Notes under the pieces: generated by a model | Databases searched by the model: none | Seen by the model: only the letters and a program-made list of their open reading frames with translations | What the model was told of the DNA's origin: nothing | Translations under genes and position numbers: made by a program | Part shown: positions 10,205-40,616 of the stretch, piece after piece | Layout: every line of letters starts with the position of its first letter | Numbering within the stretch: the stretch's first letter is position 1 | Origin: Candidatus Iainarchaeum sp. | GTDB taxonomy: Archaea > Iainarchaeota > Iainarchaeia > Iainarchaeales > JAFCCW01 | DNA length: 52,189 bases | Direction of reading: 5' to 3' | Assembly: GCA_017609985.1 (NCBI GenBank) | Contig: JAFCCW010000003.1 | Span: 1-52,189 of the forward strand

Positions 10205-10336
10205 ATGACTAAAAGAAGGTGTTGGCAAATCCTGCAAAGGATGCAGTGCCAGCAGGCGCTTGAAGAGTGCCAGCAGGTGCTTGAAGAGTGCCAGCAGGTG
10301 CTTGAAGAGTGCCAGCAGGTGCAAATCCAGGCATAA
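10205..10336 (+). CDS. Putative 43-aa upstream ORF MTKRRCWQILQRMQCQQALEECQQVLEECQQVLEECQQVQIQA
   Basis: ATG 10205 to TAA 10336, about 25 nt after TATA-like CTTAAAAA (~10175-10182); spans the 21-bp repeat in frame. Confidence 0.4.
   Translation: MTKRRCWQILQRMQCQQALEECQQVLEECQQVLEECQQVQIQA
10245..10322 (+). repeat. 21-bp tandem repeat AGTGCCAGCAGGTGCTTGAAG, about 3.7 copies
   Basis: Directly visible; no spacers; one mismatch in the first copy. Confidence 0.95.
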
Positions 10337-10387
10337 GCTGGACTTTGACAGCTTTAAGACTTTTTTAACTAATTTTAGGTGGTGTGC

Positions 10388-21846: not shown

Positions 21847-21852
21847 AAGCGT

Positions 21853-22866: not shown

Positions 22867-23813
22867 TTTTGCACATCCTTTTCAGCCAAGGCACTCTTTG
22901 CTGCACTGGCAATAGCAGTTGCAGTCAAACCATATTTTTCAAAAAGCTGTTCTGGAGGAGCGCTCTCTCCAAATCTGTCCCTGACTCCAACACGCTTTAC
23001 TGAAGAAGGTTTTTTTTCTGAGAGAAGTTCGCAGACTGCTCCGCCAAGACCTCCTACAATGCTATGATCTTCAGCAGTTACAATAGCTCCTGTTTCAGAA
23101 GCAGCTTTCAAGACAATGTCTTCATCAAGCGGTTTAATTGTAGCCATATTTATTATGCGTGCATTAATTCCCTCTTTTTTCAAAAGAGTGGATGCTTCCA
23201 TAGCTTTTGAAAGCATAATGCCTGTTGCAATAATGGAAACATCTGCCCCGTCTTCAACAACACTTCCTTTTCCAAACTCAAAAGAATACTTGTCGCCAAA
23301 AATAACAGGAGTCTTTAGCCTGCAGAGCCTTATGTAAAGTGGATTTTCAAGTTCAAGTGATTTCAAAACAAGACTTTTTGTTTCTACACCATCAGCCGGG
23401 CAGGCAACAATCATTCCTGGAAGAGTTCGCATCAAAGCAATATCCTCCAAAGCCTGATGGCTTGCTCCGTCTTCCCCTGTTGCAAGTCCTGCATGACTTC
23501 CAGCAAGCTTTACAGGAAGCATTGAATAAGCAATACTGTTTCTTATCTGGTCAAAAGTTCTTCCAACTGCAAAAACAGCAAAAGTGCTTGCAAAAACCTT
23601 CTTCCCAGATGCAGCAAGACCTGCAGCAGTGCCAATCATGTCCTGCTCAGCAATTCCAATATTGAAAAACCTGTCAGGAAATTTTTTCTGAAAACTAACT
23701 GACTTAGTTGACTTGCTCAAATCAGCATCCAGAACAACTACATCATTATCTTTTTCTCCAGCTAAAGCAAGTGCTTCACCATAAGCTTCCCTTGTTGCAA
23801 TCTCTTCAGTCAT
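22863..23813 (-). CDS. Transketolase, C-terminal subunit
   Basis: DADL, GIAEQ, GEDGASHQ, TIKPLD, AEDH. Confidence 0.95.
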   Translation of the reverse strand: MTEEIATREAYGEALALAGEKDNDVVVLDADLSKSTKSVSFQKKFPDRFFNIGIAEQDMIGTAAGLAASGKKVFASTFAVFAVGRTFDQIRNSIAYSMLPVKLAGSHAGLATGEDGASHQALEDIALMRTLPGMIVACPADGVETKSLVLKSLELENPLYIRLCRLKTPVIFGDKYSFEFGKGSVVEDGADVSIIATGIMLSKAMEASTLLKKEGINARIINMATIKPLDEDIVLKAASETGAIVTAEDHSIVGGLGGAVCELLSEKKPSSVKRVGVRDRFGESAPPEQLFEKYGLTATAIASAAKSALAEKDVQK

Positions 23814-23817
23814 GCTC

Positions 23818-24669
23818 TCACCTCTCCTCGCCTGTTTCAATATTACAGACTAAATCAAGCTCTCCAATAGCTTTCTGGAGCTCTTCGCTTGTGAGTGTCT
23901 TTCCATGATAGTCACAGACGTTCTCAATGAATGAAACACCCTTGCATTTTGTTGTTTTTGCAACAATTACTGTTGGCTTGTCAGTGCATTCCTTTGCCTT
24001 TGCAAAAGCGCTGATGATTTCTTCAAAATCGTGACCGTCAATTTCAATCGAATTCCACCCAAAAGCAGAGAACTTGTCTGCAATCGGTTCAACTCCCATT
24101 ACATCTTCCACAAAGCCATCAATTTGAAGCCTGTTAAAGTCAACGATTGCTAAAAGATTATCAAGCTTGTAATGAGCTGAAGTCATTGCGGCTTCCCAAA
24201 CCTGTCCCTCTTGCAGTTCCCCGTCGCCAAGAAGGCAGTAAATCCTTGAATCAGATTTATCAAGCTTTGAAGCAAGAGCCATTCCGTTTGCAACGCTTAA
24301 ACCCTGTCCAAGAGAACCAGTGCTTATTTCTATGCCAGGAGTCTTTGTTGAAGAAGGATGACCTTGAAGCATTGAGTTAAGTGTCCTAAGCTTTCCAAGT
24401 TCCTCTTTTGGAAAATATCCAAGGTCAGCAAGCACTGCGTAAAGAAGCGGACAAGCATGTCCCTTGCTTAACACAAATTTATCCCTGCCGCCCCACAAAG
24501 GATTGTCAGGCTTGTGCTTCATCTCACGATAGTATAGGGCAACAACAATGTCTGTTGCAGATAGGCTCCCTCCAGGATGACCTGAACCAGCGCAGGTGGT
24601 CATCTTCAAAATTTCTTTTCTCATTTCAGCTGACTTTACACTCAGTTGTTCTGCTCCAAGCTTTTCCAT
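23818..24669 (-). CDS. Transketolase, N-terminal subunit
   Basis: GHPGGSLS, SKGH, TGSLGQG, GDGE...N ThDP motif. Confidence 0.95.
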   Translation of the reverse strand: MEKLGAEQLSVKSAEMRKEILKMTTCAGSGHPGGSLSATDIVVALYYREMKHKPDNPLWGGRDKFVLSKGHACPLLYAVLADLGYFPKEELGKLRTLNSMLQGHPSSTKTPGIEISTGSLGQGLSVANGMALASKLDKSDSRIYCLLGDGELQEGQVWEAAMTSAHYKLDNLLAIVDFNRLQIDGFVEDVMGVEPIADKFSAFGWNSIEIDGHDFEEIISAFAKAKECTDKPTVIVAKTTKCKGVSFIENVCDYHGKTLTSEELQKAIGELDLVCNIETGEER

Positions 24670-24670
24670 A

Positions 24671-25738
24671 TCAATCACCGTTCAACTCCCTCGGATAGCT
24701 TCCAAGTATTTTCAGGAAAGCAGTCCTCTTTTTCAGTTCATCCATCGCCTTCTTTACTTCTTCATCTTCAACATGCCCTGTAAAGTCAATGAAGAAAACA
24801 TACTCCCATTGCTTTTGCTTTGTAGGACGTGACTCAATTTTTGTCATGTTAAGATTGTTTTTGTTAATTGGTTCAAGGCTGTCAAACAGAGCGCCTGATT
24901 TGTGCGGCACGCTGTAAACAATTGAAGTTTTGCTGCGCTTTGCTTTTGGTGGAGCTTTCTTTCCAATAACCAAAAAGCGAGTAGTGTTGTGAGGGCTGTC
25001 TTCAATTGCTGGCGCAAGAATATTCAGTTTGAATTTTTCAGCAGCAAGCTCTGAAGCTATTGCAGCAGAGCTATGATAAAGCTGAGCAAGTTCAGCAGCC
25101 TTTGCAGTGCTGCTTGCTTCAATAAGCTCTGCTTTTGGAAGATTCTTGCTAAGCCATTCCCTGCACTGAGCAAGCGCCTGCGGATTGCTGTAAACACGTT
25201 TTATTTCTGAAAGCTTGTATTTTGAAATCAGGTTGTGGTTGATTTCAAGAGAAATCTCTGCCACAATCTGCAAGTCACTGTAGAGAAACATGTCCACAGT
25301 ATGAGTCACTGTTCCCTCAGTACTGTTTTCAATTGGAACAACCCCATAATCTGCCTGGTCTTTCTCCACAGCCTTAAATACATCTGAAATAGAATTCATT
25401 GCAACCAATTCTGACGAAGACCCAAATTTTTTAAGAGCAGCCATGTTAGTAAAGGTTGCCTCAGGACCAAGAAAAGAAATTTTCAGAGGCTGTTCAAGTT
25501 CACGCGAAGCAGACATTATCTCAGTGTAGACAGCCCGCAAGTGCTTTTTTGGAAACTTAACAGATTTTTTTGAAAGCTCTTCGATTATTTCCTGTTCTCT
25601 GACAGGATCATAAACAGGGCTGTTGCTTTTTTTCTTTTGCTCTGCGACCTCAAGGATAAGCTCGCTCCTCTCTTCAAGTGCAGAGAGAAGCTTTTCATCC
25701 ACTTCGTCTATTTTTTTTCTTAAGTCCTTGAGTTCCAT
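24671..25738 (-). CDS. pheA: Chorismate mutase/prephenate dehydratase (P-protein)
   Basis: LRKKIDEVD chorismate mutase domain, LGPEATF, PIENS, NTTRF, ACT domain ESRP, LGSYP; probable ATG at 25738. Confidence 0.96.
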   Translation of the reverse strand: MELKDLRKKIDEVDEKLLSALEERSELILEVAEQKKKSNSPVYDPVREQEIIEELSKKSVKFPKKHLRAVYTEIMSASRELEQPLKISFLGPEATFTNMAALKKFGSSSELVAMNSISDVFKAVEKDQADYGVVPIENSTEGTVTHTVDMFLYSDLQIVAEISLEINHNLISKYKLSEIKRVYSNPQALAQCREWLSKNLPKAELIEASSTAKAAELAQLYHSSAAIASELAAEKFKLNILAPAIEDSPHNTTRFLVIGKKAPPKAKRSKTSIVYSVPHKSGALFDSLEPINKNNLNMTKIESRPTKQKQWEYVFFIDFTGHVEDEEVKKAMDELKKRTAFLKILGSYPRELNGD

Positions 25739-25799
25739 TTCATCACTTCCTTTGCCAACAGCCTTTCTCAGACACGGGCTTGGAGTGAGAAAAAGCAAG

Positions 25800-26444
25800 C
25801 TATTTGCTTACCTTCTCCCAGTCCTTCAAAAATTTTTCAATTCCTTCATCAGTCTTTGGGTGCTTAATTAATTTTTCCAGAATTTCAGGAGGAATTGTTG
25901 CAACATGAGCTCCAAGCAAAGCAGCATCAGTCACATGACGTGGGTGTCGAATGCTTGCAACGATTATTTCTGTGTCAAACTCGTAATTGTCTATTATGTC
26001 AGCCAACTCGCTGATTAATTCCATTCCATCCTGTCCAATGTCATCAAGTCTTCCCACAAACGGGCTAATGTATGATGCGCCAGCTTTTGCGCAAAGCAGT
26101 CCCTGGTTTGCAGAAAAGACAAGAGTTGCATTTGTCTTGATTCCCTTCTTCTTCAAAGCACTGATTACCTTCAATCCCTCTGCATCACAGGGAACCTTTA
26201 TTACAATGTTCTTGTGCATTGCAGAATACTCTTCTGCCTGCTTTATCATTTCCTCTGAATTCGTTGCTGTGACCTCTACACTGATTGGACCATCAACTAT
26301 TTCGCATATTTTCTTGACAGCATCCAGAAACGAAAGAGATTGCTTGCTCATAAGGCTTGGATTGGTTGTGACTCCGTCAACAACTCCCCAGGAAGCATAT
26401 TTTTCTATTTCTTTTACGTCAGCTGTATCTATAAAAAACTTCAT
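25800..26444 (-). CDS. tal: Transaldolase (TalC/Fsa family)
   Basis: [31 protein letters not shown]; Phe at SPF and co-location with transketolase favour transaldolase. Confidence 0.9.
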
Positions 26445-26512
26445 TGAACCTCACCCCAACATACAGTGTATTTAAGTTTTTTTAAAACCATAACTAAAAC
26501 CATCACGTTCCA

Positions 26513-26546
26513 GGCCAGCGCAATCCCAACAAGGAGATGCCTGACC
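26513..26546 (-). promoter_or_regulatory. GC-rich RNA hairpin right after the Phe-rich leader stop (putative attenuator element)
   Basis: mRNA GGUCAG-GCA-UCUC-CUUGUU-GGGA-U-UGC-G-CUGGCC; its 5' arm can instead pair with UGCCUGGUU in the leader. Confidence 0.65.
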
Positions 26547-26547
26547 A

Positions 26548-26640
26548 TCAATAGAAGAAAAAGAAATTAAAAAACCAGGCAGCTGCCTCTGAGAAAAAAG
26601 AATTGAATAACTCTGTTTTAGGCAAACTGTTTGTTTTCAT
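26548..26640 (-). CDS. Aromatic amino-acid operon leader peptide (pheL-like), MKTNSLPKTELFNSFFSEAAAWFFNFFFFY
   Basis: 30 codons with 9 Phe, 1 Trp and 1 Tyr, concentrated just before the stop; 103 nt upstream of the tal-pheA-aro operon on the same strand. Confidence 0.85.
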   Translation of the reverse strand: MKTNSLPKTELFNSFFSEAAAWFFNFFFFY

Positions 26641-26659
26641 AAAAAAAAAACATGCTAAA

Positions 26660-26678
26660 ATGTTTAAAAAGCTTGTTA
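26660..26678 (-). promoter_or_regulatory. Putative BRE/TATA promoter for the aromatic leader and operon
   Basis: Minus strand AACAAGCTTTTTAAAC with the TATA-like core about 23-30 nt upstream of the leader ATG, consistent with a leaderless archaeal transcript. Confidence 0.55.
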
Positions 26679-26680
26679 TT

Positions 26681-27013
26681 TCACTTTAGGCTTGTGCCCC
26701 CAATCTGAGCAACTTTCTTTCCTTCCAAAGTCTCAAACATTTCATTGACTGCGTGATTAAGTGAATGAAAATCGCTCGCATTGTTTAAGAAACAAGATTC
26801 AAGCTTATAATCAGCTGCTCGTTCACTTATTCGTGTTCTCTCAAAAAAAGAAACAACTCCTTTTGGATCAAGATTACTCTCTTTTTCTTTTTTTTGCAAT
26901 TCAGCTACTCGTTCTTTTATTCTTGTTCTCTGAAAAAAAGAGTCAACCTCTCTTGCATCAATACGAGCGCGAATTCCCTTTGGAACAAATAGTTTAGAAA
27001 ACCTTCGAGGCAT
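26681..27013 (-). pseudogene. Probably truncated paralogue of the neighbouring orphan methyltransferase
   Basis: Ends MFETLEGKKVAQIGGTSLK*, stopping within SAM motif I (neighbour: MLETMGSLRAKKIAHIGSAAG); internal repeat VDSFFQRTRIKER/VVSFFERTRISER. Confidence 0.5.
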
Positions 27014-27086
27014 AGAAACAAAACACTATTCAGATATAAAAACAGTTCTACAAACATTAATTTTTTAAAAAGCGTGTGGAAAAAAC

Positions 27087-27743
27087 TTATTCTTTAACAA
27101 GAACAAGAGTAGACTTAAAATACCTCTCAATACGAAAGCCTGCCTCCGCGATTTTACTGATTTCTGACTCCAGAATAGGTTCTACTGAATTTGATATAAA
27201 CAGCCTTCCCCCTCTTTTGAGAACCCTTGCTGCTTCTTTTACAGAATCAAACTCAACCTTAGGATTCAGATATCCTGCAAAAAGAAAATGTTCTGATACA
27301 ACTGCGTCAAGGGAACCTTCTCTCACCGGAAGAGCTGTGGCAGATGCAACAACAGGGTTTTCAAGGTTTAGCTTCTCTTTCTTACCAACCTGAGCCGCTA
27401 TCCTCTGATGCCCTCTGTTAATATCAACCCCGATGGCTGTTGCGCCTTTTGTTTGAAGAAATCTTGCAAACAAGCCAGCAGCAGAACCAATATGTGCTAT
27501 TTTTTTCGCCCTTAAAGAGCCCATTGTTTCAAGCATTGAATGGTAAAGAGAAATATAATGAACTGTTTCCTTACGATCTCTTGTTGTTCCATTGCGTTTA
27601 AGAGCAAGGTTAATCTTTGAAATCAAATCAGTATTTCTAAAAGCATGGTCAAGGTCATCGAATCTTCTTAGAGATAACTCATAGGGAATTTGCTCAGGAA
27701 CTGGAAGAAAAATCCTTCTTTTTGTCCTTGGCATTGGAACCAT
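27087..27743 (-). CDS. Class I SAM-dependent methyltransferase (orphan)
   Basis: IAHIGSAAG, GVDIN, ATALP, SLDAVVS, EAARVLKRGG. Confidence 0.85.
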   Translation of the reverse strand: MVPMPRTKRRIFLPVPEQIPYELSLRRFDDLDHAFRNTDLISKINLALKRNGTTRDRKETVHYISLYHSMLETMGSLRAKKIAHIGSAAGLFARFLQTKGATAIGVDINRGHQRIAAQVGKKEKLNLENPVVASATALPVREGSLDAVVSEHFLFAGYLNPKVEFDSVKEAARVLKRGGRLFISNSVEPILESEISKIAEAGFRIERYFKSTLVLVKE

Positions 27744-27763
27744 AAAAAAAGAACTTCTTCCAG

Positions 27764-29386
27764 CTATAAAAACCTATTCCTATAACTCTTAAGAACTCCA
27801 TTTGGAAGTTCCTTTAGTTCTGGCTTGAAAGAAGAAAGTCTTTTCTTTAGCTCTGCTTCATCAACCACTAAGTCAATTGTTTTCTTGTCCAAGTCAATGC
27901 GGATTCTGTCACCGTTCTCTACTACTCCGATTGCTCCGCCTCTTGCAGCTTCTGGTTCAACATGTCCAATGGAAAGTCCCTTGGTTGCTCCGCTGAACCT
28001 GCCGTCTGTGAGCAGGGCTATTTCCTTGTCCATGCCCAGACCGGAAATTGAAGCAGTCGGATAAAGCATTTCCCTCATTCCAGGCCCCCCGATTTTTCCC
28101 TCGTAGCGGATTATCAAAACCTGCCCTTTTGAGAGTTCCGGACCCTCAATATGTTCGGTTGCCTGTTCCTCTGAATTGAAGACACGCGCTTCGCCCTCAA
28201 AGACTCTTGGAAAATCATCAGAAAGAGCACTTTCCTTGAGAACCGAGCCTTCCATTGCAAGGTTTCCGTAAAGAATTGAAATCCCTCCTGTTTCAGAAAA
28301 GGGATTCTTTGCAGGGCGAATAATCTCTTTGTCTTTAAGCTCTGCTTTTTCCAGCCTTGCAAACATTTCCCCGTCAACAGTTGGCAGGTCGTGAATTAAA
28401 TCCTTCTTCTTAAGCTCCGCCATGACTGCAGGAATGCCGCCTGCATTGTGCAGGTCAATCATAAAATTGCTTGAAGCAGGGTTCAGCTTGACAAGATTTG
28501 GTGTCTCAGAACTCCAGTTGTTGATTTTCTTGAGATCAATGTCAACACCAGCTTCCCCTGCAATGTCTGGAATGTGCAAAACAGTGTTAGTGCTTGCGCC
28601 GATTGCCATGTCAACCCTGAAAGCATTTTCAAAAGACTCTTTTGTCATCAAGTCTCTTGCCTTCAAACCCTGCTTTACTAAGTCAAGAATCTTCTTTCCG
28701 GCGTTGAACGCCTGCTGTTTTTTCTCCTTGTGAACTGCATGGGTTGTAGCGCACATTGCCGTGCTTAACCCAAGAGCCTCTGTAACGCATGCCATAGAGT
28801 TTGCAGTGTACAGGCCGGCGCATGAGCCAGCTCCCGGACATGAACTGCAGACAATTTCTTCATATTCTTCGTTAGAAATCTTTCCCTTTTCATGCTGTGC
28901 CTTTGCCTCAAAAGAGTCCTTTACTCCAAGCTTTCTTCCCTTGTAGTCGCCTGGCATCATCGGCCCGCCTGTGACAAAAATGCTCGGAAGATTCAAGCGC
29001 GCGGCAGCCTTGAGATGACCCGGCAGGTTCTTGTCGCAGGCTGCAATAAAAACAATTCCCTCAAAAACTCCGTGCCCTGCAACCATTTCCTCGATTGAGT
29101 CAGCTATGGTCTCACGGCTGGGAAGAGAATACTTCATTCCCTGATGGCCCATTGCAATGCCGTCACAGATAGCGATTGTGTGAAACTCAAAAGGTGTTCC
29201 CCCTGCTTTTCTGACACCCTTTTTTGCCTCTTCACCGAGTTCGCGCAGGTGGATGTGCCCTGGAGTGATTTCGTTAAAGGAGTTGACTATGGCAATAGCT
29301 GGCTTGTCCAGCTCTTCCCTTTTCAGACCGTCTGCGTAAAGCAGTGAACGGGCTGCAGGCAGCTGCTTTATTTCGCTTGGTTTCAT
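27764..29386 (-). CDS. ilvD: Dihydroxy-acid dehydratase
   Basis: [49 protein letters not shown]. Confidence 0.97.
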
Positions 29387-29471
29387 GCAAGAATTAGCAA
29401 GCGAAATATTTTAAAGAGCTGAGGAGTGAAAGAAGCAAAGATTTAACTTTGAACAAATGCTTTATTTTACA

Positions 29472-30128
29472 ATGGGACTAAGAAAAAGAATCAGGGACAT
29501 CCGACTAAGAAGATGGGTGGATCACACAAGAGACTTGAGAAACGCAGACCATTACGAGCTGGAACACAGAACAGGAATTGTCGGAGGAAAACACTTGTTT
29601 TTTAAGAGTCCATTGAGAGAAATTGATGAACTGTTCAGAGAATCAGGAAAATTCTCAATGAAAGATTTTATTTCAAAAAAACTCAAGCGCAGAAAAGCCT
29701 TTATTGGGGGAAGAGTTAAAATTCCGGTCAGAGTTCTTGACCTTGGGTGCGGAGACGGAACTGCCCTGAAAGGAATCAGAGAAAAGTTTCCAGAAGCTGC
29801 TGAAGCAGGCGGGCTTGAACTGCATGGCATTCTTGCAGAGTCAAGAATTCCTGGAAGCGGACTTGAAGGAATTGAAATTAAGAGAGCCTTGTTTAGGGAC
29901 ACAGCAGAACTATTCCCAGCAAAGCATTTTGACCTTGTTTACTCTCATTATGGACTGCTCCACGAACCACAGAATATAGTGCAAAATATTCAGGGAATAA
30001 AACAGGTTCTCAAAAAAGATGGAATTCTTGTGTTCAACTGTGATGGCAAGCGTGAAATTCCAAAAAAAGCATTTGAAGGATTTGAAGTCATGAATTCAGG
30101 CCAAGTGTATGTGCTGAGAAAAAAATAG
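29472..30128 (+). CDS. Class I SAM-dependent methyltransferase (orphan)
   Basis: VLDLGCGDG, FDLVYS, VLKKDG. Confidence 0.85.
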   Translation: MGLRKRIRDIRLRRWVDHTRDLRNADHYELEHRTGIVGGKHLFFKSPLREIDELFRESGKFSMKDFISKKLKRRKAFIGGRVKIPVRVLDLGCGDGTALKGIREKFPEAAEAGGLELHGILAESRIPGSGLEGIEIKRALFRDTAELFPAKHFDLVYSHYGLLHEPQNIVQNIQGIKQVLKKDGILVFNCDGKREIPKKAFEGFEVMNSGQVYVLRKK

Positions 30129-30196
30129 AAAGAAAAAATAGAAAACTGGAAATTGAAAGCAAACAAGAAAAGAGAAAAAAGGAATCTGGAAAAGAG

Positions 30197-31192
30197 CTAT
30201 TTGCTCTCTTCCTTTTTTTCAAACATCGCCCTTATCTTTGCACCGACAGTTTCAATTGAAGAATTCTTTTCCTCTTCCCTCAAGTTCTTCAGGTTTGGAA
30301 TGCCGTTCTTGAATTCCTCAATCCAGTCCTTTGCAAACTCGCCTGACTCAACATTTTTGAGAGCTTCCTTCATTGCATCCCTAACAGGTTGTCCGACAAT
30401 TTTCGGTCCAACAGTCCTCGAACCCCACTCAGCAGTATTAGAAACCCTCGAATGCATGTTCTGGATACCCCCTTCGTAGAACAAGTCAACAATTAGCTTG
30501 AGCTCGTTCATGCATTCAAAGTAAGCTATTTCTTCAGGATAACCTGCTTCAACAAGAGTGTCAAAGCCTGCCTTAACAAGCTCTGTTACTCCACCACACA
30601 AAACAGCCTGCTCTCCGAACAAGTCACTGTAAGTTTCCTGTTCAAAAGTGCATTCCATAACTCCAGCGCGGGTGAAACCCATTGCCTTAGCCATGCCAAG
30701 AGCAACTTCCTTTGCCTTGCCAGAAGAATCCTGCTTTATTGCAATCAAGCCAGGAACTCCGAAGCCTTCAAGAAAGCGTTTTCTTTCCTCGCTCCCAGGT
30801 GATTTTGGAGCAACCATGATAACATCAACATTCTCTGGAGGAACAATCTGCTTGAAAACAATTGAAAAGCCGTGCGAACAGCAAAGAATGTTTCCCTCGC
30901 TTATCTTGTCCTTGATTTGTTCCTCGTAGACTTTTCCCTGAACCTCATCAGGCAAGAGAATGTGAATGACATCGGCTTTTTCAGCAGCCTCTGCAATTGA
31001 ATAAACTTCAAACCCGTCTTCTTTTGCCTTGTCTGCTGCAGGCTCTGGCCTGCTTCCGACGATTACATTCAAGCCAGAGTCCTTCATGCACAAAGCCTGT
31101 GCTTCACCCTGGTTTCCATAACCAATAACAGCTATAATCTTGTCTTTTACTGCATCAAGTGATGCGTCATTTTCGTGAAAAATTTTTACCAT
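30197..31192 (-). CDS. ilvC: Ketol-acid reductoisomerase
   Basis: IGYGNQG, LLPDE, HGF, APKSPG, DLFGEQAVLCGG, SNTAEWG; ATG 31192 after GGAGG. Confidence 0.97.
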   Translation of the reverse strand: MVKIFHENDASLDAVKDKIIAVIGYGNQGEAQALCMKDSGLNVIVGSRPEPAADKAKEDGFEVYSIAEAAEKADVIHILLPDEVQGKVYEEQIKDKISEGNILCCSHGFSIVFKQIVPPENVDVIMVAPKSPGSEERKRFLEGFGVPGLIAIKQDSSGKAKEVALGMAKAMGFTRAGVMECTFEQETYSDLFGEQAVLCGGVTELVKAGFDTLVEAGYPEEIAYFECMNELKLIVDLFYEGGIQNMHSRVSNTAEWGSRTVGPKIVGQPVRDAMKEALKNVESGEFAKDWIEEFKNGIPNLKNLREEEKNSSIETVGAKIRAMFEKKEESK

Positions 31193-31301
31193 AGAAATTA
31201 CCTCCAAGCAGTTAAAAGAAAAATTCCTGCGCTAAGTTTTAAAACATTGCCCTTCAAATTTTTTACATCTAAAAAACGCATTACCTGAGAAAGGGATTAA
31301 A

Positions 31302-33377
31302 TTGATTGAACTTGTTTTTGTTGCGAGCGTCGTAGCCCTTCTCTTTGCCTTCTGGCTGTCCAGATTTGTGATGAAGCAGAGCGAAGGCTCCAAAGAAATG
31401 ATAGAAGTAGCAGAAGCAATCAGAGAAGGAGCAAATGCTTTCCTTGGAAGACAGTACAAGACAATCGCTATTTACTTTGCAATAGTTCTTGTGATACTGA
31501 TTGCACTTGTTGCACTGGGTCACCTGACAATCTTTGTTCCATTTGCTTTCCTCAGTGGAGGATTTTTCTCCGCACTAAGCGGCTATATAGGAATGAAGAT
31601 AGCAACAAACGCTAATGCAAGAACAACAGAGGGAGCAAAAAAATCTTTGAACCATGGTTTGAAAATTGCTTTTTCTTCAGGAGCAGTAATGGGCTTTATG
31701 GTTATCGGTCTTGCATTGCTTGACTTAAGCATCTGGTATGCAATACTTAACTGGTTTTATTCAGGATTAGAAACTGCAGCAAGAATGCAGCACATTACCT
31801 CTGCAATGCTGACTTTTGGAATGGGTGCCTCTTCAGTTGCATTGTTTGCAAGAGTTGGCGGAGGAATCTTCACAAAAGCAGCTGATGTTGGCGCAGACCT
31901 TGTTGGAAAAGTTGAAGCAGGAATTCCAGAAGATGATGCAAGAAACCCGGCAGTAATTGCAGACAATGTTGGAGACAACGTGGGGGATGTTGCTGGAATG
32001 GGAGCAGACCTCTACGAAAGCTATGTTGGAAGTGTTATTGCAACAATGGCTTTGGGAGTTGCAGCAGGACTGAGTGTGGAAGGAGTTACTCTGCCAATGA
32101 GCATTGCTGCTCTGGGAGTGATTGTATCAATACTTGGAACCTTCCTTGTCAAAACAAAAGAGGACGCAACACAACACGAGCTATTGAATGCGTTGAGAAG
32201 AGGAATGTATGGAGCATCAATCCTTCTTGCAATCGGAGCATACTTTGCAACAACAATGATTCTTGGAGCAGAGCATATTGGAGTTTATTACGCTATTTTG
32301 ATTGGGCTGATTACAGGAATAATTATTGGCTTTTCAACTGAGTACTTTACTTCAGCAAAATACAAGCCAACACAATTTATTGCAGAGTCAAGCCAGACAG
32401 GCCCTGCAACTGTTATAATTGATGGAATGAGCATTGGAATGCTTTCAACAGCTGTGCCAATTCTTGCAATTGGAGTAGCAATTCTTTTGAGCTTTAGCTT
32501 TGCAGGCGGATGGGACAACACTAATGCAGGACTTTACGGAATAGGAATTGCTGCAGTTGGAATGCTTTCCACCCTCGGGTTCACTCTTGCAACAGACGCT
32601 TACGGGCCTGTAGCAGACAACGCGGGCGGAATAGCTGAAATGACACACCAGAAACCGATTGTTAGAAAGAGAACAGATGCTTTTGATTCACTTGGAAACA
32701 CTACTGCTGCAACAGGCAAAGGATTTGCAATCGGTTCCGCGGCACTAACAGCACTTGCACTAATTGCAGCTTATCGAGAAGAAGTATTACTGCTTGGAAT
32801 TAGCATGGATCTTTCAATAATGAATCCAAAAGTAATGGTTGGATTGTTTATTGGAGGAATGCTGCCGTTCCTGTTCAGTTCAATGACTATGAGAGCAGTT
32901 GGCAGAGCAGCAGGAGAAATAGTTGAAGAAGTCAGAAGGCAATTTAAGGAAATTCCAGGAATAATGACTGGCAAAGGAAAGCCAGATTATCGCGCATGCG
33001 TTACAATCAGCACAAAGTCTGCTCAGAGAGAAATGATACTGCCTGCTCTAACAGCAATCGCTACACCAATTGTTTTCGGACTGTTAATTGGAGTAGAAGG
33101 AGTTGTGGGATTGCTCGCAGGAGCACTAGTTAGCGGATTTGTTCTCGCTGTTTTCATGGCAAACACTGGCGGAGCATGGGACAATGCAAAGAAGTTTATT
33201 GAAGACGGAAACTTTGGCGGAAAGGGAAGTGAAGGGCACAAAGCAGCAGTAATCGGAGACACTGTTGGAGACCCATTCAAAGACACATCAGGCCCAAGCC
33301 TAAATATTTTGATAAAATTAATGAGCATGGTTTCGCTCGTGTTCGCTTCAGTTGTAGTAACTTACGCTATTTTCTAG
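31302..33377 (+). CDS. hppA: Membrane-bound ion-translocating pyrophosphatase (K+-dependent, Na+,H+-PPase-like)
   Basis: [36 protein letters not shown]; many TM segments. Confidence 0.96.
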
Positions 33378-33421
33378 TTTAAGTTTAAGCTTAAATACTT
33401 GTTTTGAATAGAATATAATTA

Positions 33422-34306
33422 ATGAAAAAAAATCTTATTTCAGGCTTTGCTCCATTAGTTATTTTTCTAATTCTTTTAAGTGGGTGCATCTTCTTTCCAA
33501 ATCCAGAGGATAACTCCCTAATTGTGAACCCTTTTCCGTTTATTGGATCAGACAACAGCAATGAACCTGGACCAGAACCAGTGGAGCCACAGCCAGAAAC
33601 AGGGCCAGTGCCAATTATTGAACCAGCTTCTAATCCAGACAAACCAGAAAATTCTGGGCCAACAGAACCTGTTAAACAAGAAGAAAAAGAAGAAAATGAA
33701 ACAGGAGACAAAGAAGAGGAAAATCCAGAAGACCCCGAGCCCCTAAAACCAGCACCCTCAAACTATTGCATTGAAATAAACGAACTGGACGGAAACGGAA
33801 TTGGATGCAAAGACCTATTGACAGGAGAAACCCATTACTCAGGCTGTGATGAAAGCACTCCATTTAACTGGAGATGTGAAACGCAAGAAGAAGAAAATGC
33901 AATAAAATGCACTTATTCAGTTAGTCAAGAATGTGAAGAATGCTTTCACTGTGGTTTATTTTATGAACAAGACAAGATCACAGTAACCTGTGTTCCAAAC
34001 AGTTCCACAAGAGTAATCAGCGAGGTTCAGATTAGCACAGATAATCCAATGCCAGAAAACGAGGAGCTTGTTGAACCTCTTACGCTTGAAATTTGTGAAG
34101 ACCTGGAAGAATTTTGCTGGCACAAGCTGACAGAAGAAACTATCAGTATTGTCTGCAAAGAATACTATGAAAACGTTGACTGCGGAAACAGATCCAGCTG
34201 GATCAACTGCGAAGACTGTCCTACAGACTGGATACAGGACTGTACAAGGCAAAGCTATTATTCAGAACATGAATTCCTTTGCAATTATTGTGAAGAAAAC
34301 TGCTAA
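33422..34306 (+). CDS. Putative lipoprotein with Pro/Glu-rich linker and Cys-rich acidic domains
   Basis: MKK + hydrophobic stretch + LSGC lipobox; PEP-rich stalk; about 20 Cys. Confidence 0.8.
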   Translation: MKKNLISGFAPLVIFLILLSGCIFFPNPEDNSLIVNPFPFIGSDNSNEPGPEPVEPQPETGPVPIIEPASNPDKPENSGPTEPVKQEEKEENETGDKEEENPEDPEPLKPAPSNYCIEINELDGNGIGCKDLLTGETHYSGCDESTPFNWRCETQEEENAIKCTYSVSQECEECFHCGLFYEQDKITVTCVPNSSTRVISEVQISTDNPMPENEELVEPLTLEICEDLEEFCWHKLTEETISIVCKEYYENVDCGNRSSWINCEDCPTDWIQDCTRQSYYSEHEFLCNYCEENC

Positions 34307-34767
34307 AGTTTTCCTTCAAAGACAATAGAATAAGCTTGTCTGGCAAAATTTCTTGTCTGAGAATCAGAGTCTGCTTTCAAGCGAGTTAGTCCTGACCTGA
34401 CACTGTTTCTTGTTGCCTCAGACCAGAAAGGAGCAAAACCAAGTTCTGCAAAAAACTTTGATACATTGCGCCTTATTTTTACATCAGGGTCTTCAGCGAA
34501 TCTGAGAAAAGCATTTACTGCCTGCTCGCGCTCTGCAGGGTTAGCAGCCGAGTTTGCAATCTGCTCAAGACCCACAAGAATAGAAATTCGTTCAGTATAA
34601 TCTAACTCAAAAATAGTTCTGCTGGAAATAATTTTGCTGACAGCAACCTGTCGTTCAGAAACTGAGCCCTTAATCAAAACTTCGGCTAATGTTTTTTTCT
34701 CAGGAGGCTTTGGAGATGCAGTGTGAAGTTCTCGCATTCTTTTCAAAAAATCAGATCGCCTAGGCAT
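34303..34767 (-). CDS. Hypothetical protein, HEAT-repeat-like
   Basis: Helical repeats ending DPDVKIRR and DSDSQTR; MPRR start. Confidence 0.65.
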   Translation of the reverse strand: MPRRSDFLKRMRELHTASPKPPEKKTLAEVLIKGSVSERQVAVSKIISSRTIFELDYTERISILVGLEQIANSAANPAEREQAVNAFLRFAEDPDVKIRRNVSKFFAELGFAPFWSEATRNSVRSGLTRLKADSDSQTRNFARQAYSIVFEGKL

Positions 34768-34849
34768 ACAAATCAATAAAATAATGATTCAGAGATATAA
34801 ATTTCTTTGCATGCAAAAGAATTTATTAAATGAAAGAGATTCTATTAAC

Positions 34850-35605
34850 ATGGGCAAAAAACCAGGCTGGTTCAAAAAGCAGGTCAGAAGAGCAAAAGAA
34901 ACAGCAAGAGCAGAGGGAAAACGAGAACTCTTATCCTCTAACTTGCAAAGAACTACTTCTCAGCTGACAGAACTTAAAAAAATGCTCAAAGCAGAAAAAG
35001 ACCCAAGGCTAAGGCAGAGCCTTATCGCCCAGATTGTCTCAGCTCAAAACAGGATTCACACATCAAACTATCATATTGTTCTGGGGCTTGTGCTGGCAAA
35101 GTCAAGACCAAGCGAGATATACAAGAATTCAAGAACAATTGGATTAAATCCACAGGAACTCACAGGAATTCTTGTTGAATATGGCTGGCCAAGGCTTGAT
35201 ATAGTTGAAGAACTTATGCGAGCAGGCTATGAAGAAGAAGAAATAATGGAAACAACAGGACTGGATAATATTTCAAAAAAAGCACTTGAACCAACACCTG
35301 ACGAAAGAGTTGACAAATGGTGGAGAAAAAATTACACACACAGCATGGACCCTGACCAGGCACAAAGGGGAAGGCTGAGAGTAATGTTTCACGACTTCAA
35401 TGACTGGCTTGAAAGAACAGGGGAACAGCCAATAGACAAGAAAGGCGAATTTGATGAAGGAAAATTTGGAATGCTCTACGGGCAGTTTCTGGAAGAGCAT
35501 GGACTTGAACTAAGAGATCCAAAACTAAAAGATTTGAAAGGAAAAGAAAGAAGCAGGGTTGTTTTGAACAAACTGGTCAGACGATTTTGGAAACAGGAAA
35601 AATAA
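34850..35605 (+). CDS. Hypothetical protein
   Basis: Long ORF filling the gap before leuB; probable ATG at 34850 after TTTATTAAA. Confidence 0.75.
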   Translation: MGKKPGWFKKQVRRAKETARAEGKRELLSSNLQRTTSQLTELKKMLKAEKDPRLRQSLIAQIVSAQNRIHTSNYHIVLGLVLAKSRPSEIYKNSRTIGLNPQELTGILVEYGWPRLDIVEELMRAGYEEEEIMETTGLDNISKKALEPTPDERVDKWWRKNYTHSMDPDQAQRGRLRVMFHDFNDWLERTGEQPIDKKGEFDEGKFGMLYGQFLEEHGLELRDPKLKDLKGKERSRVVLNKLVRRFWKQEK

Positions 35606-35608
35606 AAA

Positions 35609-36685
35609 TTATTCAATCTCTTCAGAGACAGCTTTTCCGATTTCCTTTGTGCCGACTTTCTTTGTGCCCGGCTCTTCAGTGAAAATATCTCCAGTCCTGT
35701 AACCCTGTTCAAGCACTTTCACAACAGCTGACTCAATTGCATCAGCCTCTTTCTCCAGACTAAAAGAGTGTCTGAGCATCATTGCGCCTGAAAGAATCTG
35801 AGCAAGCGGGTTTGCAATTCCCTGTCCAGCAATGTCTGGAGCAGAGCCGTGAATTGGCTCATACATTCCGAATTTTTTCTCATTAATGCTTGCACTTGCA
35901 AGCATGCCAATGCTTCCGGAAATGCAGGAAGCCTCGTCACTGAGAATGTCACCAAACATGTTTCCGGTAACGATTACATCAAACTGCTTTGGGTTGGAAA
36001 CCAGCTGCATTGCAGCATTGTCAACGTAAAGATGGTTTAATTCAACTTCTGGAAAATCCTTTGCAACTTCCTCAACAGTTGAACGCCAGAGCCTGCTAAC
36101 GCCGAGAACATTTGCTTTGTCAACAGAAGTGAGTTTCTTGCCTCGCTTCATTGCAGATTCGAAAGCAAGCCTTGCGATTCTCTCAACTTCCTTTTTGGAA
36201 TACCTCATCTCGTCAGCAGAAGAATCTTTTCCCTCTTCTTTTTTTCCGAAATAAATCCCGCTTGTCAACTCTCTTACAAACAAGATATCCATGCTGTCTC
36301 CGACAATCTCCGGCTTAAGCGGAGAAGCAGAAGCAAGAGGCCCGAAAATAACTGCAGGGCGAAGATTAGCAAACAAGTCATAGCGTTTTCTAATGGGAAG
36401 AAGTGCTCCGCGCTCAGGAGTAAGCTCTGGCGGAAGACTAGCCCATTTTTCTCCGCCAACTGCTCCGAAGAAAATTGCATCGGAATTGTCGCAGACTTCT
36501 TTTGTGTCTTCAGGAAAAGGATGCTTTTTTGCATCGTAAGCAGCTCCGCCAATTAATGCTTCAGTAAACTGGAATTCACAGCCGTGCTTTTCAGAAACCC
36601 TGTTAAGAACAGCTGTTCCCTGCTCCATTATCTCAGGGCCAATGCCGTCCCCTGCAAGAACAGCTATTTTGAAGTTTTTTGCCAT
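35609..36685 (-). CDS. leuB: 3-isopropylmalate dehydrogenase
   Basis: [40 protein letters not shown]. Confidence 0.97.
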
Positions 36686-37177
36686 TTACTTTCCCTCCTT
36701 TTTAGCCCAGGCAAGCAGTCCGCCTGCGTCAATTATTCCCTGAATGAATTCAGGCAGTGGCTTTGCCTTGTAAGACTCGTTCTTTGAAATGTTTTTGATT
36801 TCCCCAGTGTCAGGATTGACTTCAACCTCGTCGCCTGATTCAATTGCTTTTGAAGCTTCCCTGGACTCGAAAAGAGGCAAGCCCATGTTGATGCTGTTTC
36901 GGAAGAAAATTCGTGCAAAGCTTGTCGCAATAACACAGGAGACACCAGCATGCTTTATTGCAATAGGAGCATGCTCTCTGCTGGAACCGCATCCAAAATT
37001 TTCCCCGCCCACAATAATGTCTCCCTTAGAAACCTTTTTGATGAATTCAGAATCAGCGTCCTCCATGCAATGAGCAGCAAGCTCAGTATAGTTAGACGTG
37101 TTCAGATATCGTGCAGGAATAATTGCATCAGTGTCAATGTTGTCTCCAAACTTGAAAGCTTTTCCTTTGTAAGTCAT
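36686..37177 (-). CDS. leuD: 3-isopropylmalate dehydratase small subunit
   Basis: [26 protein letters not shown]. Confidence 0.97.
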
Positions 37178-37197
37178 TTTAAACCTCTGATTTGAAT

Positions 37198-38463
37198 TCA
37201 TTCAACCACTTCCTCTGGATGAACAATCTTTCCCGCGATTGCGCTCGCAGCAGCAACAGCTGGATTGCTTAGGTAAACCTCGCTCTTTGGGCTCCCCATC
37301 CTGCCAACAAAGTTTCTGTTGGTTGTAGAGATTGCTTTTTCTCCTTCAGCAAGAACACCCATATGACCACCAAGGCATGGCCCGCATGTTGGAGTTGAAA
37401 AAACAGCTCCAGCTTCTACAAAAATTTGAGCAATTCCTGAATTCATGCATTCTTTGTGAATCTTCTGGGTTCCGGGAAGAATAATGCACCTGACTCCAGA
37501 GGCAACCTGCTTTCCCTTCATTATGGAAGCAGCCTCTTTCAAGTCCTCCATTCTGCCATTAGTGCAAGAACCAATAACTGACTGGTCAATTGGAACATAT
37601 CCAACTTCTGAAACAGGCTTTGTGTTCTCAGGAAGATGAGGAAACGAAACCTGGGGCTCGATTTTGGAAGCATCGTAATCGAATGACTCACAGTATTCTG
37701 CATCAGAATCGCTCTTGAAAATCTTAAATAGCTTGTCTGTTGCCTGCTTGACAAACGCCTCTGTTTTTGAGTCAGGCTCAATCAAGCCGGCTTTTCCACC
37801 AGCCTCAATCGCCATGTTTGACATTGAAAATCGTGAATCCATTGAAAGCTCACTTATTGTAGGCCCAGTGAACTCCATTGCCTTGTAAAGCGAACCGCTT
37901 ACCCCAATTTCCCCGATTGTGTAAAGAATCAAGTCTTTTCCTGAAACATGTTCTTGAAGCTTGCCTTCAAAAGAAAACTTCTGGGATTCAGGAACCTTAA
38001 ACCAGAGCTTGCCAAGAGCCATTGCAGCAGCAAGATCTGTTGAACCAACACCTGTTGCAAAAGCTCCCAAAGCACCGTAAGTACAGGTGTGAGAGTCAGC
38101 TCCAACTACAACCATGCCAGGTCTTACAAGCCCTTGTTCTGGAAGAAGCACGTGCTCTATTCCAACGCGACCAACCTCGAAATAGTTTTCAAGTTTTTGC
38201 TCTTGAGCAAACTCGCGCATAAACTTGCACTGTCCAGCAGACTTAATATCCTTGTTTGGAGTGAAATGGTCGGGAATAACAGTGACTTTTTCCCTGTCAA
38301 AAACCTCTTTGAAACCTGCTTTGCGAAATTCCTCAATTGCAATTGGAGCAGTAATATCGTTTCCAAAAGCAAAATCAACATCTGCAAGAATTATCTCACC
38401 AGGGCTAAGATTATCTTTACCAGAATGCTCTGCAAGAATCTTTTCCGAAATTGTTGCACCCAT
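37198..38463 (-). CDS. leuC: 3-isopropylmalate dehydratase large subunit
   Basis: [27 protein letters not shown]. Confidence 0.97.
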
Positions 38464-38511
38464 ACTGTTCACCAGATTTTATAAACAGGAAATCTTTTAT
38501 TACTTAATTAC

Positions 38512-40047
38512 TTATTTAGGCTTGCCTTCTTTAAATAAAGCCTTGTTATAACCATTAATTATTGCCTCGACAGACGCCATTATTACATCCTCATTGATTG
38601 CTTCAGCTAAAAACTCTTTTCCCCTGCTGTTCTTAACCTTTATTACTACATTCGCAAGAGCATCTGTCCCTCCAGTAATTGCCTTAAGATTGTATTCCTT
38701 GAGAGAAACTTTTTCAGAAATAACTGAAGCAATTGCTTTCGCGCTTGCATCAACTGGTCCGACACCTTTTGCTTTTCCAACAACCTGCTTTCCGTCAATC
38801 TTCAAAGAAACCTCTGCCTCAGGCTGAACCCTGTTTCCAGTAAAAATTTTTACTTCTTCAAGAACAATTCTCTTGTCTTCTTCCCGCATCTGGTCAGTCA
38901 CATCATTTGCTATTGCAACAATATCTTCTCTGAAAACCCGCTTTTGCTTGTCAGCAAGAGCCTTGATGCGAGACGTAATTTCTTCAACCTGATTTTCCTT
39001 CAAACCATAACCCATTTCCTTGAGAACTGATTTAACAGCATGCTTGCCAGAGTGCTTGCCTAAAACAAGCTCTGATTCCTTTCCAATCATTTTCGGATCC
39101 ATTATTTCATAAGCTTCTCGCTTGCAAAGCACGCCATGTTGATGAATTCCGGATTCGTGAGCAAAAGCATTTTCTCCAACAACAGCTTTGTTGCGCTGAA
39201 CCAAAAGACCAGTGAATGAAGAAACCATCTGGCTTACCCGATAGATTTCGCTGAGGTTGAGATTTGTTTCAGCACTATAATAGCTTGAACGAGTTTTGAG
39301 AGCCATGGCAAGCTCTTCAAGAGCAGCATTTCCTGCCCGCTCTCCGATTCCATTGACAGCACACTCCACCTGTCCAGCACCATGCCTCACTGCCTCAAGA
39401 GAATTTGATACAGCAAGTCCAAGATCGTTATGGCAATGCACGCTAATTGTTGCCTGCTCGATGTTTGGAACATTTTCAATTATTCCAGAGATTAAATTTC
39501 CAAATTCAGCTGGCTGGGCATATCCAACAGTATCAGGAATATTGACAGTTGTTGCACCAGCTTCAATTGTTTTCTCCAAAACCTCGTAAAGAAAAGCAGT
39601 TTCTGTCCGTGAAGCATCCTCTGGACTGAATTCAATATTCTTGCAAAACTGACTTGCATACTTGACACCAGCCACACCCATCTGTATTATCTCTTTCGGC
39701 GACTTCTTGAGCTTGAACTCACGATGGATTGGAGAAGTGGCTAAGACAACATGAATTCTTGGCTTTTTTGCAGGTTCTAATGCTTTTGCAAGCCTGTCAA
39801 TGTCTTTTTCAACAACTCTTGCAAGACCAGCAACCTCGCTTTTTTTTATTTCTTTGGAAATGTCCCTAACTGCCTTAAAATCGTCCTCGCTCGCAATCGG
39901 AAAACCAGCCTCAATTATGTCCACATTCATCTTTTCAAGATGCTTTGCAATGATAATCTTTTCCTGATGGGAAAGCGTGGCTCCGGGAGACTGCTCTCCG
40001 TCTCTAAGCGTTGTGTCAAAAATCTTTATTTTTCTTGGTTTTGCCAT
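38512..40047 (-). CDS. leuA: 2-isopropylmalate synthase
   Basis: DTTLRDGEQ, HCHNDLG, GERAGN, HESGIHQ, C-terminal GxGPVDA regulatory domain. Confidence 0.96.
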   Translation of the reverse strand: MAKPRKIKIFDTTLRDGEQSPGATLSHQEKIIIAKHLEKMNVDIIEAGFPIASEDDFKAVRDISKEIKKSEVAGLARVVEKDIDRLAKALEPAKKPRIHVVLATSPIHREFKLKKSPKEIIQMGVAGVKYASQFCKNIEFSPEDASRTETAFLYEVLEKTIEAGATTVNIPDTVGYAQPAEFGNLISGIIENVPNIEQATISVHCHNDLGLAVSNSLEAVRHGAGQVECAVNGIGERAGNAALEELAMALKTRSSYYSAETNLNLSEIYRVSQMVSSFTGLLVQRNKAVVGENAFAHESGIHQHGVLCKREAYEIMDPKMIGKESELVLGKHSGKHAVKSVLKEMGYGLKENQVEEITSRIKALADKQKRVFREDIVAIANDVTDQMREEDKRIVLEEVKIFTGNRVQPEAEVSLKIDGKQVVGKAKGVGPVDASAKAIASVISEKVSLKEYNLKAITGGTDALANVVIKVKNSRGKEFLAEAINEDVIMASVEAIINGYNKALFKEGKPK

Positions 40048-40145
40048 TTATCCACCCTGAATTTTTTAAACAATAATTTTAAACATTAAACTTCAATCAA
40101 AATAAACTTGATTAAACTACTATTAATAGTTTGTTTATGATTCAA

Positions 40146-40175
40146 AGCCGCTGTTCCTCTGTGCAAGGCGCGGCT
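40146..40175 (-). promoter_or_regulatory. GC-rich RNA hairpin overlapping the Leu-rich leader stop (putative attenuator element)
   Basis: mRNA AGCCGC-G-CCU-UGCACAG-AGG-AACA-GCGGCU followed by UUGAA; competes with the GCUAUUG/CGAUAGC stem enclosing the Leu codons. Confidence 0.65.
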
Positions 40176-40263
40176 ATCGAAGTAGAAGCAATAGCTTTTC
40201 AAGAACAGTCTTCGGTTTAGCAAAATCTTTTGAAACAGTTTTGTATGCATATTTTGAAGACAT
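40174..40263 (-). CDS. leu operon leader peptide (leuL-like), MSSKYAYKTVSKDFAKPKTVLEKLLLLLR
   Basis: 29 codons with five consecutive Leu codons (CTA TTG CTT CTA CTT) before R-stop; 126 nt upstream of leuA on the same strand. Confidence 0.85.
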   Translation of the reverse strand: MSSKYAYKTVSKDFAKPKTVLEKLLLLLR

Positions 40264-40310
40264 TTATAATCACATTTATTAATGGATAATTGGGTTTAAA
40301 TAGATAGTGG

Positions 40311-40616
40311 TCAGCCTCTTGCAAGAGACTCAACTGCTGCAATATACTCGCTCCTATTGGTTCCAACAGGCTTTTGGGCAAAAATTTTCACAAGCTCAGC
40401 TTCACGTCTTTTTCGTTTGATAAGGTCCAAAAGCTCTGGATTGGTTAGCTTTATTTCTTCAAGAACATTTCTAACCACGCCATATCTGTGTGCATTTTTT
40501 CGAACATCTGGGTTTGGAGCTCCGCCAATAGCTAAAATAACATTGCCAGTAATTGAATCGATTGTTCTCTTTCTTTGATAATCTCGAAACCAATTTGAAA
40601 ATCTTTTCAAAGGCAT
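40311..40616 (-). CDS. Hypothetical protein
   Basis: ATG 40616 directly after the ilvE stop (MPLKRFSNWFRDYQRKR...). Confidence 0.6.
   Translation of the reverse strand: MPLKRFSNWFRDYQRKRTIDSITGNVILAIGGAPNPDVRKNAHRYGVVRNVLEEIKLTNPELLDLIKRKRREAELVKIFAQKPVGTNRSEYIAAVESLARG

Follow-up and report, generated by a model that had tools for sequence, protein, structure and literature searches.

The leuL, pheL, trpL and hisL regions of enterobacteria are leader-peptide transcription attenuators: a short open reading frame (ORF) precedes a biosynthetic operon, carries a run of cognate codons near its end, and is followed by alternative pairings that begin at the stop codon. We describe here two ORFs of the same build in an archaeon, in front of the leucine operon and the aromatic amino-acid operon of Candidatus Iainarchaeum sp. 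(assembly GCA_017609985.1). Both lie in a stretch of 52,189 nt (positions 1 to 52,189 of contig JAFCCW010000003.1, our contig C32; hereafter the window). The original prediction, made from this sequence, had pointed out two unannotated ORFs before these operons, and the ORF listing contains both where it had placed them, on the minus strand. Our analysis suggests that these are translated leader peptides that report tRNA charging to the operon behind them, a reading to which we assign a probability of roughly 0.75. The archaeal leaders differ from the enterobacterial ones in their setting: the host has an archaeal RNA polymerase (RNAP) and TATA promoters, the leader mRNAs are predicted to be mostly leaderless, and no Rho was found in the genome, which is 86.6% complete. 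They also differ in anatomy: the window lacks a uniform 3:4 terminator, the hairpin abuts the stop codon, and no bacterial leader family of Rfam matches.

Other known systems share single features with these leaders. At E. coli pyrBI and pyrE, a ribosome that occupies the last part of an upstream ORF physically blocks the hairpin immediately downstream of its stop codon. The archaeal leaders likewise set a ribosome at the end of an ORF against a stop-adjacent hairpin, but at pyrBI and pyrE the signal is polymerase speed set by UTP rather than tRNA charging, and there are no cognate runs. TnaC stalls when its amino acid is abundant, the opposite logic to that proposed for the archaeal leaders; what tnaC with Rho and archaeal FttA/aCPSF1 termination at U-tracts have in common with these leaders is that a ribosome held at the leader end could deny the nascent RNA to a termination factor. 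Of the systems considered here, the one closest in mechanism is that of the leaderless poly-Cys ORFs of mycobacteria (Canestrari et al., bioRxiv 10.1101/834739). According to that preprint, a leaderless sensory ORF with a cognate tract serves as first cistron, as in the archaeal leaders, and a stalled ribosome blocks an RNA structure. In mycobacteria the blocked structure sequesters a ribosome-binding site, whereas in the archaeal leaders such pairing tests negative and U-tracts suggest termination in many lineages; the two systems also belong to different domains of life.

For archaea themselves, a 2021 article (PMC8448881) states that no example of transcription attenuation or antitermination was known, and another (PMC10219788) says, in a general statement citing reviews, that upstream ORFs act in archaea too. 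Our literature searches, which covered the main text of freely available papers, returned no archaeal amino-acid leader peptide among the matches listed. Judged from sequence, the leaders of the window thus look like the first archaeal case of the ribosome-based attenuation known from bacteria; if true, they would be the first instance in archaea of regulation that exploits the coupling of transcription to translation, or at the least the stalling of a ribosome on a sensory ORF.

The leucine leader (40174–40263, minus strand, as are all elements of the two leaders and operons given below) has 29 codons followed by TAG; its peptide, MSSKYAYKTVSKDFAKPKTVLEKLLLLLR, ends in LLLLLR, with five Leu control codons (CTA TTG CTT CTA CTT; 40180–40194) that are followed by one Arg codon and the stop. 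The aromatic leader (26548–26640) has 30 codons followed by TGA; its peptide, MKTNSLPKTELFNSFFSEAAAWFFNFFFFY, ends in WFFNFFFFY, so that the control codons (26551–26577) reach the stop. The leaders are separated from the leuA-leuC-leuD-leuB operon (35609–40047) and from an eleven-gene operon running from tal to the chorismate synthase gene (16312–26444), both assigned with Pfam, by spacers that measure 126 and 103 nt, as had been reported. Gene calls are simple longest-ORF calls, and the start codons of the structural genes are approximate.

Such ORFs are rare in this genome. Among 1184 ORFs of 8–70 codons in 529 upstream regions, eight have at least six identical residues in their last ten; five of these start with ATG, and two of the five are the leucine and aromatic leaders. 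Phe-rich ORFs also arise from T-rich DNA at other places in this genome (one precedes a kinase gene on contig C27), so that the decisive evidence must be comparative. All of our evidence is of this kind and is drawn from metagenome-assembled genomes. The search for orthologues covered 196 genomes of the same order together with 19 other genomes of the phylum (215 in all).

Orthologues of leuA (51–67% identity) occur in 49 of the 196 genomes of the order, and none was found in the 19 other phylum genomes searched. An ORF with an L/V/I-rich end precedes 46 of 48 orthologous leuA loci in the order. At the 12 closest loci we found ten short ATG ORFs (7–11 L/V/I in the last 12 residues), one doubtful case and one locus without an ORF; the further leuA upstream regions have an ORF in 36 of 36 cases, one with a TTG start. 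The peptides diverge freely except for the L/V-rich end and typically finish with two Leu codons and one further residue (Ala, Gly, Lys or Glu). The mixture of Leu, Val and Ile in the tails is in keeping with the gene order of several relatives, where leuA is followed on its strand by ilvC. For the aromatic operon, pheA orthologues occur in 36 of the 196 genomes, and an F/Y/W-rich ORF precedes 23 of 32 pheA/tal loci (9/13 plus 14/19); among the nine loci without a leader, one had little upstream sequence (322 nt). These aromatic leaders are ATG ORFs of 28–41 codons with 6–9 F/Y/W in the last 12 residues, and they stand upstream of tal or, where tal is absent, directly upstream of pheA. The ORFs and cognate runs noticed in the window are thus kept in relatives at both kinds of locus.

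Controls were clean. The same detector applied to 64 bacterial leuA loci gave a best ORF tail of 0–4 Leu at 56 of them; the remaining eight reach 5–7 Leu, are mostly gammaproteobacterial and planctomycete, and resemble ordinary bacterial leu leaders, whereas all nine archaeal leuA loci from the same search score 5–8. A scan for leaders beyond the two operons, which had been proposed as an extension, ended negatively: a His-rich ORF precedes hisG at none of 23 loci, and at 21 trpE loci only two ORFs with at least two Trp appeared, neither convincing as a Trp leader. The system is therefore not genome-wide, and the device appears specific to two operons rather than a general intergenic property of the order.

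These comparisons bear on one alternative, namely that the leaders are chance ORFs in AT-rich intergenic DNA and the aromatic one a T-rich terminator read as Phe. The Phe-rich ORFs found elsewhere in the genome favor such a view, as does a T10 tract (26641–26650) that adjoins the ATG of the aromatic leader. The view is refuted by the conservation at 46/48 leuA and 23/32 pheA/tal loci and by the clean controls; the aromatic tails also contain Tyr and Trp codons, and one positive aromatic locus, which uses both, lies in a region of 62% GC, where mere T-richness is no explanation. We therefore consider it practically negligible as an explanation and conclude, from the sequence comparisons, that the leaders are not chance ORFs.

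The position of the cognate codons and the structure that follows them are conserved as well. Each of the 55 leaders analysed has its last cognate codon among the three final sense codons: at the very end in 14 leaders, one position earlier in 39 and two positions earlier in 2. In these leaders a hairpin, H1, opens 3–13 nt (mode 9) past the first base of that codon. Defined as a hairpin of −7 kcal/mol or below that opens between −3 and +6 of the stop end, H1 is present in 63 of 69 leaders (51/55, and 12/14 further aromatic leaders) compared with 29 of 235 control ORFs of this genome. In the window, the 5′ arm of leucine H1 (40141–40181; core stem 40146–40175) takes in the stop codon together with the two sense codons before it and the CCGC behind it. 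This hairpin folds at −16.1 kcal/mol (z −2.62; 2/200 shuffles as good), and H1 of the aromatic leader (26513–26546), which begins 1 nt past the stop codon, folds at −17.8 kcal/mol (z −2.63; 3/200); the GC-rich hairpin that the original prediction had drawn at the stop is borne out for both leaders. The competing pairing by which the control codons would be looped out is present too, and proved weak: in the leucine leader it is at chance level (−5.7, z −0.32, 69/200 shuffles as good), and in the aromatic leader it reaches −10.4 (z −1.77, 13/200).

Stem sequences of H1 differ between families, and H1 shows covariation. In a plain MAFFT alignment of 28 leucine leaders, seven of eight pairs change on both sides, with 24 both-side-change cells versus 9.5 ± 3.7 in shuffles (0/500 as high); 80.9% of cells are paired, compared with 38–71% when the partner columns are slid. 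The structure was derived from the sequences' own folds, which favors H1 somewhat, and the sequences are related rather than independent. Codon choice in the leucine tails is also unusual: the rare Leu codon CTA makes up 0.12 of Leu codons in leader tails versus 0.04 in leuA (29 loci), a threefold difference.

The leaders also appear to be promoter-proximal. A TATA-like hexamer starts between −33 and −24 of the leader ATG in 45 of 69 leaders versus 32 of 338 control ORFs, and within −52 to −18 in 65 of 69 versus 72 of 338. Its position peaks at −28 to −30, the distance expected if transcription begins at the ATG and gives a leaderless mRNA. The box of the aromatic leader, CTTTTTAAAC (26662–26671), has a TTTAAA beginning 28 nt 5′ of the ATG, as expected for a leaderless transcript, and that of the leucine leader, CTATTTAAAC (40294–40303), has one beginning 37 nt 5′. 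In family f20 the box lies about 20 nt further upstream and a Shine-Dalgarno (SD)-like AGTGA about 10 nt 5′ of the ATG. We therefore predict that the leaders are transcribed from their own TATA box, placed at the distance of a leaderless or short-leader mRNA. The T10 tract is probably the terminator of the upstream gene at 26681–27013, in which case this terminator and the promoter of the aromatic leader overlap. In genus g38 (family f11; L080–L085 and L090), a palindrome-like TGTA..N..TTGTTACA element is conserved about 45–60 nt 5′ of the leader ATG, just upstream of the TATA box, and suggests an additional DNA-binding regulator there.

Taken together, the recurrence of ORFs, codon runs and stop hairpin across many families of the order, joined by the promoter signals and the covariation of H1, upholds the core of what had been proposed for the window, namely cognate leader peptides of shared build that act as ribosome-mediated amino-acid sensors. 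On the evidence of this conserved anatomy, a promoter-proximal ORF whose cognate run ends at the foot of a hairpin, the leaders are very probably functional cognate sensors.

Could they instead be independent genes for small hydrophobic peptides, with H1 and a U-run as their own terminator and without any regulation of the operon? Their L/V- or F/Y-rich tails are hydrophobic, and a hairpin with an oligo-U tract does follow many leaders. On the other hand, two unrelated leader families have tails made up of what the operon behind them produces, the hydrophobic stretch spans only 8–12 residues, the peptides diverge freely outside the cognate residues, and compact loci leave no room for a separate operon promoter. 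One such locus is L293, where the pheA ATG lies about 61 nt past the leader stop and 11 nt past a U6 tract; this spacing leaves no room for another promoter and supports co-transcription of leader and operon. We regard the small-peptide explanation as very improbable.

How a sensing ribosome would act on the operon is less certain than the sensing itself. The output that we tentatively prefer is premature transcription termination at U-tracts near H1, a proposal based on sequence. U-tracts are the archaeal termination signal. Of 51 leaders, 37 have a U-run of at least four either inside H1 or no more than 14 nt beyond it, and 22 of the 51 have one in the 14 nt beyond H1. Conditional termination is favored because U-tracts cluster in and after H1, because compact L293 excludes another promoter, and because the genome encodes a 630-residue beta-CASP protein of FttA/aCPSF1 size, which makes FttA a candidate participant, while no Rho was found. 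In family f20, H1 is followed by U4–5 within 1–2 nt, a GC hairpin with a direct U-run like that of the enterobacterial attenuators; its last codons (GCUAGGA) can pair with the 3′ part of the H1 5′ arm, and by eye one locus carries a compensatory variant. In the leucine leaders of f11 and the aromatic leaders of f23, H1 is followed by a run of A5–9 and then a run of U5–9. Leucine leaders of f23, f26 and f6 have no U-run after H1 and carry instead a second hairpin, H2, whose 5′ arm overlaps the 3′ arm of H1.

In the window itself, a consensus scan of 39950–40400 found no terminator-like site (a bacterial hairpin with a U-run); U3 follows leucine H1 and no U-run follows aromatic H1. That no classical terminator is visible, as had been noted, thus holds for the window, but it does not extend to several related lineages, which have a GC hairpin and a direct U-run. 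The leucine spacer (40058–40140) is AT-rich with short U-tracts and an AU hairpin, and may hold termination signals, with a second promoter also possible there. The aromatic spacer (26458–26512) contains two GGTTTT tracts (T4 at 26496–26499 and 26484–26487) and an A7 run. GUUU(U)A repeats, which had been listed as part of the shared architecture, are visible in both spacers, but the motif does not recur in relatives. An extension of the stem by pairing of the A-run after H1 with the control codons was considered and found no general support (mean z 0.15; 8/69 below −1.5).

We next consider an output on translation or mRNA stability, with the same sensing. Such an output has parallels in the mycobacterial leaderless poly-Cys ORFs and in ermC-type attenuation; the archaeal leaders look leaderless, as the mycobacterial ORFs are reported to be, and the leucine leaders of f23 have no oligo-U after H1. 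In the window, SD-like GGGTGGA (40051–40057) stands 5′ of the leuA ATG (40045–40047) and SD-like GGGGTGAGG (26449–26457) 5′ of the tal ATG (26442–26444); the centroid fold of the leucine leader pairs CUACU with the SD region, individual loci have 6–7 bp of anti-SD-like complementarity, and masking the control codons raises the modelled accessibility of the SD region from a mean of 0.46 to 0.55 (leucine) and from 0.38 to 0.59 (aromatic). However, pairing of the control codons with the SD region has a mean z of 0.14, with among-loci permutations as good in 18/200 (leucine) and 131/200 (aromatic); the segment after H1 against the SD region gives a mean z of −0.30 (permutation 92/200; f23-type subset 60/200); the control codons against the segment after H1 give a mean z of 0.15; and H1 can stand as far as 260 nt from the start codon of the operon. 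With a small modelled accessibility shift and duplex tests that are not significant, an output on translation or mRNA stability is a live rival without specific support, and we consider it unlikely.

Under the conditional-termination reading, the sequence of events could be as follows. A ribosome translating the leader would report the charging of tRNA-Leu (in relatives also of tRNA-Val and tRNA-Ile), or of tRNA-Phe, tRNA-Tyr or tRNA-Trp, to the downstream operon. A ribosome protects about 12–14 nt of mRNA on its 3′ side, the footprint that we assume for the masking of H1; when its A site holds the stop or the last cognate codon, it would cover the first bases of the H1 5′ arm. Its position would then decide between H1 and a competing pairing, which in f20 would be that of the last codons with the H1 5′ arm and in f23 would be H2. 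The choice of fold would in turn decide between a stop of RNAP at the U-tracts within H1 or shortly behind it and continued transcription of the operon. We slightly favor H1 as the "off" fold that a stalled ribosome prevents, because the arm of leucine H1 in the window overlaps the last two sense codons; in f23, on the other hand, H1 and H2 are reminiscent of the 2:3 and 3:4 hairpins of classical attenuators, and H1 would by that analogy be the "on" fold.

Several points weigh against this account of the leaders. The co-transcription of leader and operon, the short terminated transcripts and the translation of the leaders are features that we infer from sequence, and a second promoter could lie concealed in the AT-rich spacers. 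Because the genomes compared are related and hence not independent, our counts and P values overstate the evidence. The leaders of the window have U3–U4 tracts only and no terminator-like site, and the output element is not uniform: f23 leucine leaders have no U-run of at least four after H1, whereas others have U5–9. Although H2 is 81.8% paired, versus 31–53% when columns are slid, its sequence hardly varies, and it shows no covariation beyond shuffles; from the plain alignment, RNAalifold retrieved H2 only in part. Finally, H1 is also masked by a ribosome that waits at the stop, so that neither polarity works without assumptions about kinetics.

The ancestry of the leaders raises a further alternative, that they are bacterial relics, carried in with the operons and kept by descent without regulating anything in the archaeal cell. 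Small- and large-subunit rRNA score best with archaeal Rfam models, so that the genome itself is archaeal in origin. The operons, and perhaps the leaders, may be of bacterial origin: among 75 confirmed loci the nearest LeuA proteins outside the order are bacterial (42–58% identity), the shikimate kinase of the window belongs to the SKI type and its PheA is a CM-PDT-ACT fusion (Pfam), both of which we take to be typically bacterial types, and Leu-run leaders occur at some related bacterial leuA loci. Against a relic, the nucleotides of ORF and H1 differ widely between families, yet the codon run, the frame, the stop-adjacent position of the hairpin and the archaeal TATA box are kept, which argues for purifying selection on function rather than inertia. 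Moreover, the Rfam leader families (Leu_leader, the Phe, Trp, His and Thr leaders, and the T-box) give no match at gathering threshold in the whole window, and permissive scans of both leader regions return only unrelated families with E above 3. We consider the relic explanation improbable.

Combining these lines, our fullest proposal is more doubtful than its sensing half: through leaderless leaders and a stop-abutting hairpin, the ribosome would control whether archaeal RNAP stops at short U-tracts, possibly with FttA/aCPSF1, by a device that probably came with the operons from bacteria and was then adapted to the promoters and the termination of archaea, with an output unlike the bacterial hairpin plus U-run. 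The roughly 70 natural sequence variants offer material on whether archaeal polymerase responds to a nascent hairpin and whether a ribosome shields RNA from FttA, and they bear on how a bacterial regulatory device survives transfer into an archaeal cell. If the leaders are sensors, regulation of biosynthesis is still within reach of DPANN archaea, despite their reduced genomes and small number of transcription factors.

Some bacterial leucine leaders met in the comparison have a design of their own. At three gammaproteobacterial leuA loci (L126, L129 and L133), the Leu run ends one codon before the stop and pairs with GGCGAGGAG, a segment further downstream, while the start of leuA is enclosed in a hairpin of its own; the arrangement has no U-run terminator and looks as if it worked on translation. 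Further candidates were met among the archaeal sequences. The conserved motif CAGAAGTCNTTANA was rejected as a genome-wide element: it has 32 matches in the 196 genomes, about ten of them leucine leaders, and a reversed control of the pattern matched at least as often, which leaves no genome-wide enrichment. A "WW" ORF on contig C27 (L093:5465–5540) passed the structure filter and proved to be a tRNA gene upstream of a 200-residue gene; that a tRNA gene read as an ORF mimics a Trp-rich leader is a caution for automated leader-peptide scans. On contig C34 (66788–66921; L094), a 21-codon ATG ORF rich in Ser and Cys (seven Ser in the last ten residues) lies upstream of a HAD-type phosphoserine-phosphatase-like gene, with a 6-bp hairpin across its stop and, behind the hairpin, A5U5 and an SD-like GGTGGTG. 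This ORF may be a Ser leader, the third of the cognate kind; no orthologue was found in 60 relatives at E 1e-20. Another ORF on the same contig (67570–67656) has 22 codons, six of them for Cys and His; the gene directly behind it encodes a ZIP-like metal transporter, and the ORF could be a metal-related small protein or a leader. On contig C8, an 18-nt direct repeat (L107:569–586 and 641–658) occurs twice within 185 nt 5′ of trpE and adjoins an ORF of 11 codons that has a TATA-like box; the repeat may serve to bind a trp regulator and not belong to a leader-peptide system.

The genome (1.16 Mb in 37 contigs, 38.7% GC) is biosynthetically rich by DPANN standards. Besides tal, pheA and the chorismate synthase gene, the aromatic operon encodes a split transketolase, DAHP synthase, DHQ synthase, EPSP synthase, shikimate kinase, DHQ dehydratase and shikimate dehydrogenase. 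Elsewhere the window carries genes for a D12-class N6-adenine DNA methyltransferase (4393–5283), a membrane H+-pyrophosphatase (31302–33377) and a RuBisCO large-subunit homologue (45231–46532). A second LeuA/CimA-like gene (10379–11926; 32% identical to LeuA) is separated from a divergent gene by a 292-nt gap, in which a 21-bp tandem repeat (10245–10322) occurs in 3.7 copies with 98% matches.

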